Shown: positions 4,360 through 63,436 of the stretch, in pieces
Layout: every line of letters begins with the position of its first letter
How positions within the stretch are numbered: the stretch's first letter is position 1
Translations under genes and position numbers: made by a program
Notes under the pieces: generated by a model
What the model was told of the DNA's origin: nothing
Database searches by the model: none
What the model saw: only the letters and a program-made list of their open reading frames with translations
Assembly: GCA_038087875.1 (NCBI GenBank)
Contig: CM075995.1
Coordinates: 1,862,001-1,926,000, forward strand
Length of the DNA stretch: 64,000 nt
Direction of reading: 5' to 3'
Source of the DNA: Malacoraja senta
Taxonomy: Eukaryota

Positions 4360-5175
4360 TTAGGTTATAAGTGATAGGAGCAGAATTAGGCCATTCGGCC
4401 CATCAAGTCTACTCCGCCGTTCAATCATGGCTGATCTATCTCTTTCCTCCTAACCCCATTCTCCTGCCTTCTCCCCATAACCCCTGACACCCGTACTAAT
4501 CAAGAATCTGTAGGAAAAGACTGCAAATGCTGGTTTAAATCGAAGGTAGACACAAAATGCTGGAGTAACTCAGCAGGACAGGCAGCGTGTCTGGAGAGAA
4601 GGAACGGGTGACGTTTTGAGTCGAGACCTGAAGAAGGGTCTCGACCCGAAACGTCACCCATTCCTTCTCTCCAGAGATGCTGCCTGTCCCGCTGAGTCAC
4701 TCCAGCATTTTGTGTCTATCTTCTAATCAAGAATCTATCTACCTCTGCCTTAAAAATATCCATCGACTTGGCCTCCACAGCCTTCTGTGGCAAAGAATTC
4801 CACAGATTCACCACCGTCTAACTAAATAAAATCCTCCATATCTCCTTCCTCAAGGAATGTCTTTTAATTATGAGGCTATAACCTCTAGTCCTAGACTCTC
4901 CCACTGGTGGAAACACCCTCCCCACATCCACTCTATCCAAGCCTTTCACTATTCGGTACGTTTCAACGAGGTCATCATATGTTAACCCACTCATTCCTGG
5001 GATCATTCTCGTAAACCTCCTCTGGACCCTCTCCAGAGCCAGCACCTCCTTCCTCAGATATGGGGCCCAAAACTGCTCACAATACTCCAAATGCAGTCTG
5101 ACCAGTGCCGTATAGAATCTCAGCATTACATCCCTGCTTTTGTATTCTAGCCCCCTCGAAATAAGTACCAGCCTT
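4360..5175 (-). mobile_element. CR1 LINE 3' fragment interrupted by a mini-element
   Basis: ORF 4818..5216 (LEYCEQFWAPYLRK, QRRFTRMIPG). Confidence 0.85.
4510..4722. mobile_element. Palindromic Penelope-derived mini-element with TSD
   Basis: 14-bp TSD CTAATCAAGAATCT at 4496-4509 and 4723-4736; inverted arms around CTGAAGAAGGGTCTCGACCCGAAACGTC. Confidence 0.85.
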
Positions 5176-12307: not shown

Positions 12308-12577
12308 GGGCAGCACGGTGGCGCAGCGCCAGAAACAGGGAGCCGTCTGTACGAAGTTTGTACGTTCTCCCCGTGACCTGCGTGGGTTTTCTCCGAGATC
12401 TTCGGTTTCCTCCCACACTCCAAAGACGCACAGGTTTTTTTTGTTAATTGACTTGGCATAAATGTAAAATTGTCCCAAGTGTGTGTCGGGCAGTGTTAAT
12501 ATGCGGGGATCGCTGGTCGGCGCGTACCCGGTGGGCCGCAGGGCCTGTTTCCACGCTGTATATCTAAACTAAACTAA
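12308..12577 (+). mobile_element. HE1-like SINE (internally deleted head)
   Basis: Head, V-domain and (AAACT)n tail. Confidence 0.8.
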
Positions 12578-12655
12578 AGAAAATCACTCTTGTCTCTTGA
12601 CTTGACTCTGAAATGAAAATTGGAGAATTCAGTGTTCATTCCTTTAGCTTGTAAG

Positions 12656-12971
12656 TTTAGTTTAGTTTAGAGATACAGCGCGGAAACAGGCCCTTCGGCC
12701 CACCGGGTCCACGCCAACCAGCGATCCCCGCACATTAACACTATCCCACACCCACTGGGGACATTTTTTACATTTACCAAGCCAATTATACTACAATCCC
12801 ACACGTCTTTGGAGTGTGGGAGGAAACCGGAGATCCCGGAGAAAACCCACGCAGGTCACGGGGAGAACGTACAAACTCCGTACAGACAGCACCCGTAGTC
12901 GGGATCGAACCCGGGTCACCGGCGCTGCATTGGCTGTAAGGCAGCAACTTTACCGCTGCGCCACAGTGACC
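12656..12971 (-). mobile_element. Full-length HE1-like SINE
   Basis: GTAAG duplication at 12651-12655 and 12972-12976; empty site present in the paralogous copy near 6705-6720. Confidence 0.85.
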
Positions 12972-17530: not shown

Positions 17531-18306
17531 TAAAATGTTTCTAACATTGACCTTACTAATGTACAGATAATGTCAATGGTAAATTTAATTACTGGCACAG
17601 ACGTCTTCCCAATTAATTAGATATTAGTTCATTAGCCAACAGAGTTAAAGAAGGAACTGCAGATGCTGGAAAATCGAAGGTACACAAAATTGCTGGAGAA
17701 ACTCAGCGGGTGCAGCAGCATCTATGGAGCGAAGGAAATAGGCAACGTTTCGGGCCGAAACCCTTCTTCAGACTGATAGGGGGTGGGGGGAAGAAAGGAA
17801 AAAAGGAAAAAGGCGGAGGAGGAGCCCGAGGGCTGGGGGAGGGGAGGAGACAACCAGAGGGCTGATGAATGGGAGGGGACAGCAAGGGCTAGCAGAATTG
17901 GGAGAATTCAATGTTCATGCCCCCAGGATGTAGACTGCCCAAGCGGAATATGAGGTGCATTTCCTCCAATTTACGGTGTTGCTCGCTGTGGCCATGGAGG
18001 AGACCCAGGACAGAGAGGTCAGATACGGAATGGGAGGGGGAGTTGAAGTGCTGAGCCACCGGGAGCTCAGGTTGGTTATTGCGGACCGACCGGAGGTGTT
18101 CGGCGAAACGATCGCCAAGCCAGGGCATCCGAAATGTCCTCATTCTTCAGGGAACGGGGGTTCCCCTCCTCCACCATAGATGAGGTTCGCACCAGGGTCT
18201 CTGCCATACCCCGCAACACTGCTCTCTCTCCCCACCCCCCACTCACAACAAGGGCAGAGTCCCCCTAGTCCTCACCTTTCACCCCACCAGCCGTCACATA
18301 CAACAA

Positions 18307-18873
18307 GTGATCCTCCGTCAGTTTCGCCACCTCCAACGTGACCCCACCACTCGCCACATCTTCCCATCTCCCCCCATGTCTGCCTTCCGCAAAGACCGCT
18401 CCCTCCGTAACTCCCTTGTCAATTCTTCCCTTCCCTCCCATACCACCCCCTCCCCTGGTACTTTCCCTTGCAACCGCAAGAGATGCAACACTTGTCCCTT
18501 CACCTCCCCCCTCGACTCCATTCAAGGACTCAAGCAGTCGTTCCAGGTGCGACAGAGGTTCACCTGCATCTCCTCCAACCTCATCTATTGCATCCGCTGC
18601 TCTAGATGCCAGCTGATCTACATCGGTGAGACCAAGCGGAGGCTTGGCGATCATTTCGCCGAACACCTCCGGTCGGTCCGTAATAACCAACCTGAGCTCC
18701 CGGTGGCTCAGCACTTCAACTCCCCCTCCCATTCCGTATCTGACCTCTCTGTCCTGGGTCTCCTCCATGGCCACAGCGAGCAACACCGGAAATTGGGGGA
18801 AATGCACCTCATATTCCGCTTGGGCAGTCTACATCCTGGGGGCCTGAACATTGAATTCTCCCAATTCTGCTAG
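18307..18873 (+). pseudogene. Penelope-like GIY-YIG endonuclease C-terminal fragment (Neptune-type Cys linker)
   Basis: CNRKRCNTC linker; LIYCIRCSRCQLIYIGETKRRL...EH...HFN...N motifs. Confidence 0.85.
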
Positions 18874-18987
18874 CCCTTGCTGTCCCCTCCCCTTCATCAG
18901 CCCTCTGGTTGTCTCCTCGCCTCCCCCAGCCCTCGGGCTCCTCCTCCGCCTTTTTCCTTTTTTCCTTTCTTCCCCCCACCCCCTATC

Positions 18988-19022
18988 AGTCTGAAGAAGG
19001 GTTTCGGCCCGAAACGTTGCCT
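18988..19022 (+). ncRNA. Putative minimal type I hammerhead ribozyme core in the Penelope 3' UTR/pLTR
   Basis: CUGAAGA (18991-18997), stem II GGG..CCC, GAAA, CG, UU; PLE pLTRs are known to carry minimal hammerheads; stem I is only ~2 bp. Confidence 0.6.
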
Positions 19023-19139
19023 ATTTCCTTCGCTCCATAGATGCTGCTGCACCCGCTGAGTTTCTCCAGCATTTTTGTGTACAGCCAACAGAGTTAGTTG
19101 GCTATTATGTTCTTATTACACCTTCGCTCAGTCCGCCAG

Positions 19140-24795: not shown

Positions 24796-25329
24796 ACTGT
24801 GTTCGGTCTAGCTTACACCCTAGGCTCAGACTACATGACAATGGTCACCAGAGCTGAAATGGAAAGTAGAAACATTAAAAAATAGAAACACATAAACATA
24901 GAAAATAGGTGCAGGAGTAGGCCATTCAGCCCTTCAAGCTAGCATCACCATTCAATATGATCATGGCTGATCATCTAAAATCAGTACACTGTTCCTGCTT
25001 CCTCCCCATATCCCTCGATTCCTTTAGCTCTAAGAGTTAAATCTAACTATCTGTTGTAAACATCCAGTGAATTGGCCTCCACTGCTTTCAGTGGCAGAGA
25101 ATAGTAAGATTAAACGAGAACTTACCAGTTTGAAGTTTGATCTTTATTTTATGAGGAGTTACGTTGGTGATTACGTGAAGAAGACCCGTCAGGGCGCATG
25201 CGCGTCAATCTTCAAAGCAGCGGTATGAAATCACAGACAACACCATAATTGAAGTAACATATTAAGATGATCAACATGAGAACTACCATTATGACCTTTT
25301 TTCGATGAGAGAGGGTTGGGCGTGGCGGG

Positions 25330-25441
25330 CACGTAATCACCAACGTAACTCCTCATAAAATAAAGATCAAACTTCAAACTGGTAAGTTCTCGTTTAATCT
25401 TACTATTTTACTTCGGAGTCACGTGAGTGACTACGTGAAGA
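25330..25441. repeat. DIRS internal complementary region (ICR)
   Basis: 25330-25407 is the exact reverse complement of 25100-25177 (78 nt); 25405-25441 is the exact reverse complement of 29824-29860 (37 nt). Confidence 0.95.
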
Positions 25442-34355: not shown

Positions 34356-36052
34356 GGGCGACATGGTGGTGCAGCGGTAGAGTTGCTGCCTTGCAGCGCC
34401 AGAAACATAGAAAATAGGTGCAGGAGTAGGCCATTCGGCCCTTCGAGCCTGCACCGCCATTCAATATGATCATGGCTGAGCATCCAACTCAGTATCCCGT
34501 ACCTGCTTTCTCTCCACACCACCTGATCCCTTTAGCCACAAGGGCCACATCTAACTCCCTCTTAAATATAGCCAATGAACTGGCCTCAACTACCTTCTGT
34601 GGCAGAGAATTCCAGAGATTCACCACTCTCTGTGTAAAAAATGTTTTTCTCATCTCAGTCCTAAAAGATTTCCCCTTTATCCTTAAACTGTGACCCCTTG
34701 TTCTGGACTTCCCCAACATCGGGAACAATCTTCCTGCATCTAGCCTGTCCAAACCCTTAAGAATTTTGTAAGTTTCTATAAGATCCCCCCTCAATCTTCT
34801 AAATTCTAGCGAGTACAAGCCGAGTCTATCCAGTCTTTCTTCATATGAAAGTCCTGACATCCCAGGAATCAGTCTGGTGAACCTTCTCTGTACTCCCTCT
34901 ATGGCAAGAATGTCCTTCCTCAGATTAGGAGACCAAAACTGTACGCAATACTCCAGGTGTGGTCTCACCAAGACCCTGTACAACTGCAGTAGAACGTCCC
35001 TGCTCCTATACTCAAATCCTTTTGCTATGAATGCTAACATACCATTCGCATTCATCACTGCCTGCTGCACCTGCATGCCCACTTTCAATGACTGGTGTAC
35101 CATGACACCCAGATCTCGTTGTATCTCCCCTTTTCCTAATCGGCCACCATTCAGGTAATAGTCTACTTTCCTGTTTTTGCCACCAAAGTGGATAACCTCA
35201 CATTTATCCACATTATACTGCATCTGCCATGCATTTGCCCACTCACCCAGCCTATCCAAGTCATCTTGCAGCCTCCTAGCACCCTCCTCACAGCTAACAC
35301 TGCCCCCCAGCTTCATGTCATCCGCAAACTTGGAGATGTTGCATTCAATTCCCTCGTCCAAATCATTAATAGATATTGTAATTAGCTGGGGTCCCAGCAC
35401 TGAGCCTTGCGGTACCCCACTAGTCACTGCCTGCCATTCGAAAAAGGACCCGTTTACTCCTACTCTTTGCTTCCTGTCTGCCAGCCAGTTCTCTATCCAC
35501 ATCAATACTGAACCCCCAATACCGTGTGCTTTAAATTTGTACAGAGACCCGGTTTCAATCCTCACTACTTGTGCTGTCTGAACGGAGTTTGTACGTTCTC
35601 CCTGTGACCTGCGTGGGTTTTCTCCGGGTGCTCCGGTTCCCTCCCACACTCAAAAGACTTACAGGTTTGTTTAAGAAAGAACTGCAGATGCTGGAAAAAT
35701 CGAAGGTAGATAAAAAAAGCTGGTGAAACTCAGCGGGTGAGGCAGCATCTATGGAGCGAAGGAATAGGTGACGTTTTGGGTCGAGACCCATCTTCAGACT
35801 GATGTCGGGGGGGGGGGGGAAGAAAGGAAGAGGCGGAGACAGTAGGCTGTGGGAGAGCTGGGAAGGGGAGGGGAAGGAGGGAGGGAGAAAGCAAGGACAG
35901 GTTTGTTGGTTTATTGGCTTCGGTAAAATTTTAAATTGTCCCTAGTGTGTGTAGGAGTGCTGGTGTGCGTCGATCACTGGTTGGCGTGGACGCGGTAGGC
36001 TGAAGGGTCCGTTTCTGCACTGTATCTCTAAACGAAACGAAACTAAACTAAA
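34356..36052 (+). mobile_element. HE1-like SINE split by a CR1 (34403-35540) and a Penelope fragment (35672-35896)
   Basis: SINE head ends GCAGCGCCAG and resumes CAGAGACCCGG at ~35542; 11-bp TSD ACAGGTTTGTT at 35661-35671 and 35897-35907 around the Penelope piece. Confidence 0.8.
34403..35540 (-). mobile_element. Young 5'-truncated CR1 with open RT C-terminal frame
   Basis: [33 protein letters not shown] without stops. Confidence 0.95.
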
Positions 36053-44292: not shown

Positions 44293-44515
44293 TGTAAGAA
44301 GGAACTGCAGATGCTGGTAAAATCGGAGGTAGACACAAAATGCTGGAGTAACTCAGCGGGTGAGGCAGCATCTCCAGAGAGAAGGAACGGGCGAAGTTTC
44401 GGGTCGGGACCCTTCTTCAGACTGATGAAGGGTCTCGACCCGAAACATCACAGATTCCTTCTCTCCAGAGATGCTGCCTGTCCCGCTGAGTTACCATAGC
44501 ATTTTGTGTCTACCT
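44293..44515. mobile_element. Palindromic Penelope-derived mini-element with TSD
   Basis: 15-bp TSD TCCACCTATCACTTG at 44278-44292 and 44516-44530; core CTGATGAAGGGTCTCGACCCGAAA. Confidence 0.85.
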
Positions 44516-44766: not shown

Positions 44767-44949
44767 TCTAAAGAGAGACACAAAATGCTGGAGTAACTCA
44801 GCGGGACGGGCAGCATCTCTGAAGAGAAGGAACGGGTGACGTTTCGGGTCGAGACCCTTCCTCAGATTCAAGGGTCTCGACCCGAAACGTCCTGCCTGTC
44901 CCGCTGAGTTTTGCGTCTATATTCGGTTTAAACCAGCATCTGCAGTTCC
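44767..44949. mobile_element. Palindromic mini-element inserted in an older Penelope 3'UTR (~44650-45150)
   Basis: 12-bp TSD ACAATGATCTAT at 44755-44766 and 44950-44961. Confidence 0.75.
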
Positions 44950-51931: not shown

Positions 51932-52240
51932 GACTCAATCACAGTCTGGTACGGAAACACTGACAGTCATTCACTACACAGAATACAGCGCATTGTCTCC
52001 AAGGCCTCTAGGATCATCAACTCTCCCCTCCCCTCAATCCATTCCATTTACCTCCAACGTACCTCAAAACGGGCAACAAAGATCATCTCGGACCCCTCCC
52101 ATCCAGCAAACCACCTTTTCCAGTCTCTCCCTTCAGGGAGGCGCCTTAGGTCACTTGCTACAAAATCCACCCGTTTTAAAAACAGTTTCTTCCCCTTAGC
52201 AATAAGAACACTTAATTCCCTCCAATAACGTTTTGACTTT
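51932..52240 (+). mobile_element. Rex1/Babar C-terminal fragment
   Basis: SITVWYGN...DPSHPANHLFQSLPSGRRLRS...RFKNSFFPLAIRTLN. Confidence 0.85.
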
Positions 52241-52244
52241 GTGT

Positions 52245-53222
52245 TAAAGAAGGAACTGCAGATGCTGGAAAATCGAAGGTACACAAAAATGCTGGAGAAA
52301 CTCAGCGGGTGCAGCAGCATCTATGGAGCGAAGGAAATAGGTAACGTTTCGGGCCGAAACCCTTCTTCAGACTGATAGGGGGTGGGGAGAAGAAAGGAAA
52401 AAAGGAAAAGGAGGAGGAGGAGCCCGAGGGCTGGGGGAGGGGCGGAGACAACCAGATGGCTGATGAAGGGGAGGGGACAGCCAGGGCTAGCAGAATTGGG
52501 AGAATTCAACGTTCAGGCCACCAGGATGTAGACTGCCCAAGCGGAATATGAGGTGCATTTCCTCCAATTTACGGTGTTGCTCGCTGTGGCCATGGAGGAG
52601 ACCCAGGACAGAGAGGTCAGATACGGAATGGGAGGGGGAGTTGAAGTGCTGAGCCACCGGGAGTTCAGGTTGGTTATTGCGGACCGACCGGAGGTGTTCG
52701 GCGAAACGATCGCCAAGCCTCCGCTTGGTCTCACCGATGTAGATCAGCTGGCATCTAGAGCAGCGAATGCAATAGATGAGGTTGGAGGAGATGCAGGTGA
52801 ACCTCTGTCGCACCTGGAACGACTGCTTGGGTCCTGGAATGGAGTGGAGGGGGTAAGTGAAGGGACAAGTGTTGCATCTCTTGCGGTTGCAAGGGAAAGT
52901 ACCAGGGGAGGGGGTGGTATGGGAGGGAAGGGAAGAATTGACAAGGGAGTTACGGAGGGAGCGGTCTTTGCGGAAGGCAGACATAGGGGGAGATGGGAAG
53001 ATGTGGCGAGTGGTGGGGTCACGTTGGAGGTGGCGGAACTGACGGAGGATCACTTGTTGTATGTGACGGCTGGTGGGGTGAAAGGTGAGGACTAGGGGGA
53101 CTCTGCCCTTGTTGTGAGTGGGGGGATGGGGAGAGAGAGCAGTGTTGCGGGGTATGGCAGAGACCCTGGTGAGAGCCTCATCTATGGTGGAGGAGGGGAA
53201 CCCCCGTTCCCTGAAGAATGAT
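52245..53222 (-). mobile_element. Penelope-like element 3' part (open thumb/GIY-YIG frame, hammerhead-like core near 52343-52372)
   Basis: FRERGFP...VPLVLTFHP...CNRKRCNTC...IYIGET; near-identical to 18140-19082. Confidence 0.9.
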
Positions 53223-53464
53223 AGGGATAAGCCTACAAACCTGTACGTCTTTGGAGTGTGGGAGGAAACTGAAAATCTCGGAGAAAACCCACGCAGGTCA
53301 CGGGGAGAACGTACAGTCAGCACATCCATTGTCAGGATCAAACCCGGGTCTCTGGCACCTAAGCCACTGTGCATTTTACTATTCGAGAAACACAGCTACA
53401 AACCTTTACATTTAGAATAGACTTTAAAAAAATACTGGGAATCGCTAACAATATTCCATCTTGA

Positions 53465-53930: not shown

Positions 53931-54279
53931 GGAGAGGAGGGGGGTGGGGGGGAGGGAGGGGGGGGGGGGATGAAAAGCTTACTCCATTAGGCACTCCTCC
54001 ACGGCTGGGGTCCTGTCCTTGAGCACTCCAGTCGTAGATCAACAGTCCAGTTTAAACACACAGGAGACGAGGACACTATTCCAATGACTTCTAAACATTA
54101 GATAGCACATTGCCACCAAGCCCAAGGTCTTCCTTTGTCCGCCCAACAGCGGGAGGAGCAGCATTCTGCATCAAGAGCAGGGCATCGGAAACTATTATCG
54201 TTTTCAGCCCTGTTAAATTCTATAAACATTTGGCTGGGGATTGCCCCTCTTCTAAGATAATTCTGACATATTGTGCGCA

Positions 54280-55672
54280 AACATAGAAAATAGGTGCAGG
54301 AGTAGGCCATTCGGCCCATCAAGTATCCTGTACCTGCTTTCTCTCCATACCCCCTGATCCCTTTAGCCACAAGGGCCACATCTAACTCCCTCTTAAATAT
54401 AGCCAATGAACTGGCCTCAACTACATTCTGTGGCAGAGAATTCCAGAGATTCACCACTCTCTGTGTGAAAAATGTTTTTCTCATCTCAGTCCCAAAAGAT
54501 TTCCCCTTTATCCTTAAACTGTGACCCCTTGTTCTGGACTTCCCCAACATCGGGAACAATCTTCCTGCATCTAGCCTGTCCAACCCCTTAAGAATTTTGT
54601 AAGTTTCTATAAGATCCCCCCTCAGTCTTCTAAATTCCAGCGAGTACAAGCCGAGTCTATCCAGTCTTTCCTCATATGAAAGTCCTGACATCCCAGGAAT
54701 CAGTCTGGTGAACCTTCTCTGTATTCCCTCTATGGCAAGAATGTCCTTCCTCAGATTAGGAGACCAAAACTGTACGCAATACTCCAGGTGTGGTCTCACC
54801 AAGACCCTGTAGAACTGCAGTAGAACCTCCCTGCTCATATACTCAAATCCTTTTGCTATGAATGCTAACATACCATTCGCTTTCTTCACTGCCTGCTGCA
54901 CCTGCATGCCCACTTTCAATGACTGGTGTACCATGACATCCAGGTCTCGTTGCATCTCCCCTTTTCCTAATCGGCCACCATTCAGGTAATAGTCTACTTT
55001 CCTGTTTTTGCCACCAAAGTGGATAACCTCACATTTATCCACATTATACTGCATCTGCCATGCATTTGCCCACTCACCCAGCCTATCCAAGTCATCTTGC
55101 AGCCTCCTAGCACCCTCCTCACAGCTAACACTGCCCCCCAGCTTTGTGTCATCCGCAAACTTGGAGATGTTGCATTCAATTCCCTCATCCAAATCATTCA
55201 TATATATTGTAAATAGCTGAGGTCCCAGCACTGAGCCTTGCGGTACCCCACTAGTCACTGCCTGCCATTCTGAAAAGGACCTGTTTACTCCTATTCTTTG
55301 CTTCCTGTCTGCCAGCCAGTTCTCTATCCACATCAATACTGAACCCCCAATACCGTGTGCTTTAAGTTTGTATATTAACTCTTATGTGGTACCTTGTCGA
55401 AAGCCTTTAGAAAGTCCAGATATAACACATCCACTGGTTCTCCCTTATCCATTCTACTAGTTACATCCTCGAAAAATTCTATAAGATTCGTCAGACATGA
55501 TTTACCTTTCATAAATCCATGCTGACTTTGTCCAATGATTTCACCATTTTCCAAATGTGTTGCTATCCCATCTTTAATAACTGACTCTAGCAGTTTCCCC
55601 ACTACCGATGTTAGACTAACTGGTCTGTAATTCCCTGTTTTCTCTCTCCCTCCCTTTTTAAAAAGTGGGGTG
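54280..55672 (-). mobile_element. Young CR1, longest RT fragment in the window
   Basis: ORFs 55375..55602 and 54098..55336 cover [21 protein letters not shown] and FADD. Confidence 0.95.
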
Positions 55673-59399: not shown

Positions 59400-60725
59400 A
59401 AGTAAATTTGTAGTTCCTAGTTTAGTTAGTGTGTGTGGTGTTCAAGAGCCTGATGGTTGTGGGAAGAAATTGTTCTTGAACCGAGAGATTCTAGTTTTCA
59501 GACTCCTATACTATCTTCCTAATGGTCGGAGTGAAATGAAACTGTGGCCAGGGTGGTGTGGGTCCTTGATGAGATTGCATTTATGAGACAACACATCCTA
59601 TGAAACTCTTTGTTAAAGAAGGAACTGCAGATGCTGGAAAATCGAAGGTACACAAAAATGCTGGAGAAACTCAGCGGGTGCAGCAGCATCTATGGAGCGA
59701 AGGAAATAGGTAACGTTTCGGGCCGAAACCCTTCTTCAGACTGATAGGGGGCGGGGAGAAGAAAGGAAAAAAGGAAAAAAGGCGGAGGAGGAGCCCGAGG
59801 ACTGGGGGAGGGGAGGAGACAACCGGTGGCTCAGCACTTCAACTCCCCCTCCCATTCCGTATCTGACCTCTCTGTCCTGGGTCTCCTCCATGGCCACAGC
59901 AAGCAACACCGTAAATTGGAGGAAATGCACTTGGGCAGTCTACATCTTGGGGGCTTGAACATTGAATTCTCCCAATTCTGCTAGCCCTTGCTGTCCCCTC
60001 CCCTTCATCAGCCATCTGGTTGTCTCCTCCCCTCCCCCAGCCCTCGGGCTCCTCCTCCTCCTCCGCCTTTTTCCTTTTTTCCTTTCTTCTCCCCACCCCC
60101 TATCAGTCTGAAGAAGGGTTTCGGCCCGAAACGTTACCTAATTCCTTCGCTCCATAGATGCTGCTGCACCCGCTGAGTTTCTCCAGCATTTTTGTGTACC
60201 TATGAAACTCTTTGATAGTGGGGAGGTCAGTACCAATTTGGACCAGGCAGTGTCTTCTTTGTTCGTAGTCGTTCAAGTTGCCGAATCAGGTTGTGATGTA
60301 ATCAGTCAATATGCTCTCTACCATACACCTGTAGAGGACTCGAGAGACTACTCATCAACATACCGATCGTCAATCTTCTGAGGAAGTAGAGCTTGTACAG
60401 CATAATGTATAGTTGGGAGTTGATGGGAGAGAGATTGGTATGCTTGATGGACTGGGCTGTATCGAAAGCTTTTTACAATTTGTTGTGTTCTTCGGCATAG
60501 CAGAGGCAAACCAAGTTGGGATGCATCTCAATAGGATGCTTTCGAGAGTGCATCTGTAGAAATCGATAAAAGGAATTGGAGACATGCTGAATTTCCTTAG
60601 TCTTCTGAGGATTTAGGAGGAGTTGGTGTGCTTCCTTGGTCGTATTGTAATGTAGTCGGACCTGGACAACTTGTTGGCGATGTTTACTCCCAGCAACTTG
60701 AAGCTCTTGACCAACTCCACTTCAA
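59400..60725 (-). mobile_element. Old Rex1/Babar fragment interrupted by a Penelope insertion
   Basis: FYRCTLESILLRCIPTWFA; DPHHPGH...LPLGR...SFFP in antisense. Confidence 0.65.
59613..60198. mobile_element. Penelope-like inverted-pLTR insertion with TSD
   Basis: CCTATGAAACTCTTTG at 59597-59612 and 60199-60214; minus arm to ~59824, plus arm with CTGAAGA...GAAACGTT at ~60108-60135. Confidence 0.88.
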
Positions 60726-62545: not shown

Positions 62546-63097
62546 ATTCTACATAAAGGCAGAATATTAGTCGATAGGTATTCTCTACTCCTCCACCATT
62601 TTTTCGGGGGGGGGGGGAGCGGCGGGGGGTGTATGTGTGTGTGTGTGTGTGTGTGTGCAATATATAGTTTGTTTTGAAAATGAATCAAAGGATCTTTCCC
62701 ATCATCTGATACACACCCAGTCTACATAGCTTTGTTGATTATTTCCCAAATCGGAAATAACCAAATAATAGATTTTGAGAAAAAGCAAACGGGAAGTAAT
62801 TAAGGCTGCTGATATTATGTAGAGTGGAAACCGGGAATGCTTAAAATCAAACAGTTTATTGTTTAGACCATTGTTTAGAATGACTGGCCATAGAAACTTA
62901 TACATGGTATTGTAAACTTAAGTGGAAGATTTCAATATAATGCAATCGTTTTTTTAAACCAAAACGTATTAGCGTACTGCATTTCTTTTGCCGAGAATGG
63001 AAGGAGAAATCATGACATAAACTTGTTTAATGCAATAAAGAGGAACTATAGATGCTAGTTTATACCAAAGATTAACGCAAAATACTGGAGTAACTCA

Positions 63098-63291
63098 TGT
63101 TCAAGACTGGAAAATCGAAGGTAGACAAAAATGCTGGAGAAACTCAGCGGGTGCGGCAGCATCTATGGAGCGAAGGAAATAGGCAACGTTTCGGGCCGAA
63201 GTCTGAAGAAGGGTTTCGGCCCGAAACGTTGCCTATTTCCTTCGCTCCATAGATGCTGCCGCACCCGCTGAGTTTCTCCAGCATTTTTGTC
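63098..63291. mobile_element. Perfect palindromic Penelope mini-element inserted into an older relative
   Basis: 80/80 inverted arms at 63121-63200 and 63215-63294; 15-bp TSD TACTGGAGTAACTCA at 63083-63097 and 63292-63306. Confidence 0.92.
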
Positions 63292-63436
63292 TACTGGAGT
63301 AACTCAGCAGGTCAGGCAGCATCTCTGGAGAAAATGGAAGTGACATTTCTGGTCGGGACCTGAAAATGGCACGATTCCATCCGCCTCAACCACCACCCTT
63401 GGCAGCCTGTTCCAGGCACTCATCACCCTGTGTGTA

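Follow-up and report, generated by a model that had tools for sequence, protein, structure and literature searches.

In L1 twin priming, two primers from the two target strands give two cDNAs without overlap, which are joined at an inverted junction by microhomology. Among EN+ Penelope-like elements (PLEs), insertions of Pen2a_Av in Adineta vaga carry an inverted pLTR, a one-sided tail, and a TSD (PMC3846280; scheme in PMC8557442; here and below, published work is cited from the portions of each text that were available). The origin of PLE inverted repeats and tails has been called undefined (PMC8557442). In vitro, the Poseidon element PAc of Anolis carolinensis extends both target strands, starts reverse transcription at two internal sites bounding the tail, shows no strand preference of these start sites, and inserts without need for hammerhead cleavage (PMC11167929). 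Hammerheads of metazoan PLEs form thousands of dispersed motifs, with dual motifs on opposite strands 100-700 bp apart (PMC4209133), and the noncoding, pLTR-derived non-LTR retrozymes combine a type I hammerhead and many dispersed monomers with head-to-tail tandems able to form dimeric ribozymes (bioRxiv 10.64898/2026.07.22.740005). Head-to-head pLTRs, tails, and minimal hammerheads are already published. We found no literature on the stubs described here or on PLE twin priming, and the family may still sit in Repbase, Dfam, or the supplements of papers.

The insertion studied here begins at position 63098 of the window, the 64,000-nt stretch of Malacoraja senta DNA that was analyzed as a whole. 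Positions in the pLTR unit are counted on its sense strand from the C of the CUGA box (0), and the 36 nt between +92 and +128 are called the tail. The insertion and its surroundings are laid out as follows.

63040..63360, minus strand: older pLTR copy, split into 63040-63097 and 63293-63360 (nhmmer matches)
63083..63097, plus strand: left TSD copy, 15 bp, an exact match to 63292-63306
63098..63200, minus strand: tail-bearing arm, pLTR from +12 to the tail end
63200..63291, plus strand: tail-less arm, pLTR from -3 to about +88/+91
63203..63230, plus strand: minimal type I hammerhead motif (CUGAAGA, extra A, stem II, GAAA, AC-GU palindrome, GUU triplet)
63292..63306, plus strand: right TSD copy, 15 bp

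The original prediction, made by a model from the letters alone, described a fold-back at 63098..63306 with perfect 80/80 arms around a 14-nt loop. The arms (63121-63200 and 63215-63294) are indeed 80 nt each, 100% complementary, and spaced by 14 nt, but folding predicts a loop of 6 nt, with wobble pairs carrying the stem into the CUGA box. The RNA fold has an energy of -172.9 kcal/mol (z = -25); as had been proposed, transcripts of such palindromes would be long hairpins. The insert does start at 63098 but ends at 63291 (194 bp), the end at 63306 taking in the right TSD copy, and the arms are not symmetric, the left one having a tail and the right one none. Compared with the parent pLTR of locus L171, the tail-bearing arm has a 14-nt internal deletion in the tail and lacks the CUGA box. 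The tail-less arm shares its last 3 nt with the TSD and differs from the youngest parent at three positions, all subfamily-diagnostic sites and all changed in the other arm too. The insertion landed within an older pLTR unit of the same kind, whose flanks read as one old unit when rejoined. Among 127 non-repeat frames, no host exon was found that would place the insert in a host intron, as had been proposed; the one weak Pfam match lies far below cut-off. The insert is a short leftover of a very abundant, known kind of PLE and not a new self-copying ribozyme element; with good though not full confidence, we read it as a head-to-head insertion of two pLTR pieces of an autonomous PLE, most likely produced in a single event, in which one RNA was primed twice, and probably never recopied as a unit.

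The parent element is represented in the window by GIY-YIG coding ends at 18184-18873 and 52487-53395, each followed by the pLTR unit. The window's GIY-YIG piece had 150 scored matches in the genome, 149 of them at 99%, and several of the 150 sit in frames of 1,159-1,302 codons. Ten parent loci were examined, and in five of them (L167, L168, L171, L172, and L173) a frame of 1,224-1,302 codons is directly preceded by the unit and is also followed by it, with the first ATG of L167 at +163 of the unit. The stretch from -3 to +130 is both the 3' pLTR and the 5' UTR of a young, intact-ORF EN+ PLE; the predicted origin from the 3' end of a Penelope element is right as to the pLTR and too narrow as to the end. 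The 1,224-codon frame matched the Pfam families RVT_1 (positions 708-877; E = 6.5e-6) and GIY-YIG (1128-1161; E = 0.0015), both under the curated cut-offs, and its translation has a CX4CxxC linker upstream of GIY-YIG. As a CX2-5CxxC linker between RT and EN is common to Neptune and Nematis (PMC8557442), the parent appears to be Neptune-type by its linker, with Neptune favored over Nematis from its vertebrate distribution (bioRxiv 10.64898/2026.07.22.740005). The single ORF with RT plus GIY-YIG at its C terminus, the pLTRs from partial tandems, and the hammerhead in the pLTR are those of EN+ PLEs, as are the one-sided tail, the inverted 5'-truncated copy, and the variable TSD of the insertions.

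For a census of young copies we used as entry a 23-nt anchor (+58..+80) with 39,757 exact matches genome-wide; the loci were position-picked stretches, the anchor's first places on contig C1, and 30 loci picked by an intact core. The 133 arms resolved into 110 events (10 of them from core-picked loci), namely, 75 solo copies and 35 head-to-head pairs, or 34 independent pairs if L214 and L216 are, as is probable, one duplicated locus. The 3' ends were bimodal, at about +92 (short) and about +128 (tail), with 46 short and 29 tailed solos. Every one of the 35 young pairs joined one short and one tail arm, where 47% mixed pairs were expected (P of about 5e-12). Across all subfamilies, 18 of 77 head-to-head pairs were ambiguous, and of the 59 classifiable ones 51 were mixed, 7 were tail plus tail, and 1 was short plus short, the 8 nonmixed pairs being older copies in which the profile may have overrun. 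Among the 438 arms of that all-subfamily set, head-to-head neighbors outnumbered tail-to-tail ones by 77 to 9 and tandem ones by 77 to 14. TSDs of at least 9 bp were found in 67 of 110 events and mostly measured 11-17 bp; both the variable TSDs and the retrotransposed origin that had been proposed for these copies are supported.

Insertions here and those of Pen2a_Av have in common a head-to-head inverted 5'-truncated copy, a tail of 30-40 bp at one end, a variable TSD, and junction palindromes (PMC3846280). They differ in that both arms are here often pLTR only, giving MITE-like copies of about 200 bp in tens of thousands, and such numbers make the rule of one tail per pair and the pileup of 5' ends countable. 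Neither exactly one tail per pair nor the pileup was found in the available text of PMC3846280 and PMC8557442. With PAc the element would share two internal starts of reverse transcription bounding the tail, extension of both target strands, and a pLTR hammerhead not needed for insertion (PMC11167929). Unlike PAc, it is Neptune-type by its linker, and its hammerhead and both end sites lie outside the ORF, in the 5' UTR (ATG at +163). The PAc results in the available text do not include inverted products. The strict one-of-each rule is unexplained by the in vitro data, since the start sites show no strand preference there.

The 5' ends were concentrated just before the hammerhead core. Of the 75 solo copies, 31 end within -5..+2 and 7 within -200..-17, and only 3 end within +24..+32 around the cleavage site; the lack of a pileup at +28 indicates that cleaved RNA is not the usual template. 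Genome-wide, 2,319 matches stop at -3 and 3,541 at -2, the ends being spread over -3..+2 and not set at one single position. The 11 upstream nucleotides of the main subfamily are kept in only 6,815 of 19,491 exact cores, the remainder including sister subfamilies and mutated copies. Most simply, the pileup at -3..+2 would reflect run-off at an RNA 5' end, at an initiator-like TCAGT, and an internal promoter is known for the Penelope element of Drosophila virilis (PMC2377424).

A splice acceptor at -1 is a rival to this putative transcript start near -3. A pyrimidine tract and CAG at the same place make a textbook acceptor, and in D. virilis an intron ends at helix I (PMC4209133), but the 20 copies with a G before the end share no upstream exon. 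In the parent pLTR at L167:4300-4337, a long pyrimidine tract and CAG directly precede hammerhead helix I; this stretch matches both an initiator and a splice acceptor, and no subfamily majority row has lost its AG. At L167:4495-4504, the first ATG of the ORF is overlapped by a donor-like AAG|GTATGC. No GT..AG joint into the acceptor-like site occurred among the matches listed from the contigs of eight RNA runs. By hand counts of the first 100 matches listed for each end, G precedes the -3 end in 38 and the -2 end in 49. Neither a cap-derived G nor a spliced exon is supported as the source, the 20 G-copies showing junction microhomology or short duplications and no common upstream exon; two pairs in this set look duplicated, and the second set covered 7 of 30 loci.

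To account for the two kinds of ends, we lean toward a model in which one RNP primes both cut strands at two fixed sites of one RNA, giving one tail per insertion by rule, while priming on the 5' pLTR yields strong-stop-like run-off cDNAs that place the RNA 5' end three bases upstream of the hammerhead core; we hold this somewhat more probable than its negation. The endonuclease would make a staggered cut (11-17 bp TSD), and each free DNA end would prime reverse transcription at one of two internal sites, +92 or +128. Priming on the transcript's 5' pLTR would give a run-off cDNA stopping at the RNA 5' end near -3, and priming on the 3' pLTR would give long, randomly truncated copies. Microhomology, often within the two palindromes inside the unit, or else filler would then link the two cDNA 3' ends head to head. 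In this model the hammerhead is a passenger, uncleaved RNA being the template. As in L1 twin priming, there would be two primers from two target strands and microhomology at the inverted junction, but here the stretch copied is usually the same for both cDNAs, and two fixed internal sites would serve for priming. If true, this single model would account for the inverted head-to-head order, for the tail on one side only, and for the great number of 100- to 200-bp pLTR-only copies, with no antisense template needed. Judging by the fixed pattern of its unequal arms, the element likely copies its RNA simultaneously from the two sides of the cut. A stem spanning +47..+115 of the pLTR is kept in six majority rows of the subfamilies; the +92 end site lies within it and +128 just beyond, and it is a candidate RT-positioning structure in our folding models; the fold of -3..+131 has a z score of -2.16, and no compensatory change was seen in the stem across the six rows.

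How far each arm reaches bears on how the arms are made. The tail-less arm extends at least 8 nt further 5' in 16 of the 35 pairs and the tail arm in 4, 15 being symmetric (P = 0.012), and in L199 and L263 the tail arm consists of the tail alone. A tail-less arm that reaches further 5', as in the focal copy (-3 versus +12), requires two primings from RNA, in agreement with the in vitro data on PAc (PMC11167929). Taken with the one-of-each rule, the shared alleles, and the pileup of solo 5' ends, this is best matched by two primings on one RNA with run-off at its 5' end. Pieces of the ORF start (+130..+207) occur at the junctions of four short copies (L275, L222, L018, and L099), which indicates that the template ran into the ORF, as the 5' pLTR of the parent transcript does. 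The perfect-center palindrome at L230 (C1:63770066-63773092), whose tailed arm runs into the ORF start, represents a long element folded back at its 5' end.

An alternative is snap-back self-priming, in which a single cDNA turns back at an internal palindrome and serves as its own template, a reading published with an antisense template (Arkhipova et al. 2013; PMC3846280). Junctions do favor the two internal palindromes, with 6 of 35 pairs overlapping by 14-15 nt at +10/+10 and a perfect CAG-W-CTG center at 342 loci, and arms share alleles. Yet a tail-first cDNA cannot template an arm reaching further 5' than itself, and the tail-less arm does so in 16 of 20 asymmetric pairs, among them the focal copy, with a difference of up to 607 nt. 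Nor could the tail be templated by a first cDNA that has none, and many junctions carry filler or no homology. Snap-back is largely refuted for the asymmetric pairs, is a possible and equally good fit for the 15 symmetric pairs of the 35, and is unlikely as the general route.

It is likewise improbable, to about the same degree, that solo short units with an internal promoter are remobilized SINE-like by the parent protein and supply part of the templates. Such units would have the proposed start at their 5' end and contain the two priming sites, the internal promoter mentioned above is present in D. virilis Penelope (PMC2377424), and nonautonomous PLE derivatives are published (PMC8557442; bioRxiv 10.64898/2026.07.22.740005). 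A haplotype skew points the same way, the youngest haplotype being present in 1 of 27 fully typed tail arms of mini pairs and in 5 of 8 long-armed pairs; this could reflect a second origin of short copies or an age bias. However, all main short-copy haplotypes also occur in long solos, the ORF-start pieces at junctions point to the parent RNA, and PAc activity needs the first 172 nt of the ORF (PMC11167929), whereas the stubs have no ORF sequence.

The reading of the original prediction, a nonautonomous, ribozyme-bearing palindromic family propagating as a unit, fares worse still, and we consider it very unlikely. Its high number (about 450 arms per Mb, with 21% of events being fold-backs), its recurrent centers, and the same haplotype skew speak for it, but the 35 pairs have 30 distinct junctions. 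The focal junction occurs 6 times genome-wide, at unrelated sites with different TSDs and haplotypes, and 15 examined loci with the perfect center fall into three haplotypes. In the census, the junction seen most often is the one in the stem II/GAAAC palindrome (+10/+10). We compared the arms of 55 pairs, 35 from the census and 20 picked by junction. They agreed at +88 in 44 of 50 (24.2 expected) and at three other diagnostic sites in 44 of 49 (31.4), 47 of 52 (35.2), and 45 of 50 (33.0), a concordance that fits one RNA, two RNAs of one locus, or gene conversion alike. The two arms of a copy diverged by 3.1%, and arms of different copies by 4.5-4.9% in every combination of left and right; hence there is no left-arm or right-arm lineage. 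The layout is the same at every size, from about 100 bp to 2 kb, and the sample already looks like sister arms with scattered junction types. Neither a shared junction nor arm-specific lineages, the marks of a self-propagating palindromic family, were found; junctions vary from copy to copy and arise in every haplotype, each insertion forming its palindrome afresh. A MITE derived from a DNA transposon is ruled out by the asymmetric ends (35 of 35) and by TSDs of 9-21 bp instead of a fixed short length, in line with the view of these copies as MITE-looking only. The focal copy is not a non-LTR retrozyme, being head to head where retrozymes are head to tail (77 head-to-head pairs versus 14 tandem ones overall), and its ribozyme is predicted to be inactive.

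The hammerhead of the focal copy has the core boxes, the extra nucleotide before stem II, the G10.1-C11.1 pair, and the palindromic 15.2-16.2 positions of minimal metazoan PLE hammerheads (PMC4209133), with a stem II of 4 bp and a UUCG loop. Stem I is 2 bp, short of the 4-5 bp of helix I, and its stem probability is about 0 in four contexts. A helix I of 2 bp (as in D. virilis) and a helix II of 4 bp set it apart from the hammerheads of PMC4209133, in the available text of which PLE copies of the cartilaginous-fish type do not appear. A search of the window with Rfam at E <= 10 returned no hammerhead family, only miRNA-type hairpin matches below the gathering score. In the subfamily majority rows these hammerhead features are unchanged at K = 4 and 6, and at K = 8 one core position varies, in an old cluster of 12 copies. 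Within the motif, what changes is loop II (two positions), one U-G/U-A pair, and the base at the cleavage site, and the hammerhead consensus is kept across subfamilies, as had been proposed. On the few lineages available, 0 of 11 core positions vary versus 17 of 64 downstream (P = 0.06), and 0 of 21 model-constrained positions are violated (P = 0.009); the core may thus be more conserved than its flanks, and the refuting case named with the original prediction, a core no more conserved than the flanks, is not borne out on these lineages. No two-sided compensatory change was seen in the hammerhead across these rows. This conservation belongs to the parent.

The hammerhead fold lies 7-11 kcal/mol above the ensemble as a monomer and about 40 in the palindrome. 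The ribozyme in the palindrome is predicted to be off, locked in the hairpin, because on either strand transcription reaches the antisense arm first and the fold costs about 40 kcal/mol. The same two points count against the antisense arm as a switch and would make the off state permanent. The upstream pyrimidine tract was rejected as a designed off-switch: in 5 of 6 contexts the monomer folds did not exceed shuffled sequences in stability, and the hammerhead fold is disfavored with or without the tract. Nor are the short copies centered on the hammerhead as a rule: the CUGA box is kept in 7 of 27 mini pairs and missing in 20, and the commonest junction lies at +10/+10.

A profile built from four natural copies was searched against the window and position-picked DNA (973 kb in total, including the window). 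It gave 33 arm matches in the window, about 22 insertions by hand count, close to the 20 or so copies first reported, and 438 arms overall, equal to 4.5% of bases. The two subfamilies distinguished by stem II are confirmed by 19,491 and 21,916 exact 26-mers genome-wide. Short copies outnumber long ones, as had been proposed. Further copies in the window are listed below.

4510..4722: fold-back of an older subfamily, 14-bp TSD at 4496-4509/4723-4736
17644..19082: two-armed layout with long arms (-349..+127 and -871..+91), GIY-YIG coding sequence, 14-bp TSD
44293..44515: fold-back of an older subfamily centered on the CAG-W-CTG palindrome, 15-bp TSD at 44278-44292/44516-44530
44767..44949: fold-back of an older subfamily with one arm deleted, 12-bp TSD at 44755-44766/44950-44961
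52240..53221, minus strand: solo parent copy, 5' truncated, with GIY-YIG coding end and tailed pLTR
59611..60201: two-armed layout with medium arms (-83..+128 and -290..+93), 13-16 bp TSD

The TSDs claimed for the copies at 4510, 44293, 44767, and 63098 were all recovered (14, 15, 12, and 15 bp). For the older fold-backs at 453, 927, and 16977, the same finder, which scored at least 11 in 3 of 200 random intervals, detected none. For annotation, it matters that the pLTR unit makes up about 4.5% of the sampled DNA and that its fold-backs mimic MITEs and miRNA hairpins; if transcribed, they would be a large source of perfect dsRNA. The genome offers a young PLE family whose frames are intact and whose products number in the tens of thousands, so that the integration mechanism can be tested by its ends, with the sharp predictions of one tail per pair and run-off at -3.

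Other repeats were seen along the way. At C1:3.87-4.04 Mb (L143-L145), a tandem array of units of about 2-3 kb, each with a short pLTR copy, is a local duplication and not retrozyme-sized; it was removed from the census by flank deduplication. About 79% of the window matches repeats present in the other loci examined. Long LINE-like frames covering the RT C terminus, which we take to be CR1/L2-like, lie at 34489-35649 and 54098-55381. At 12466-12768, 113-nt inverted arms (88%) come from another short repeat, one that has a simple-sequence tail and is present in two copies facing each other. A perfect 78-nt inverted repeat (25100-25177 and 25330-25407, 152 nt apart) is unrelated to the pLTR palindromes and presumably resembles the terminal/internal complementary repeats of DIRS-type elements.
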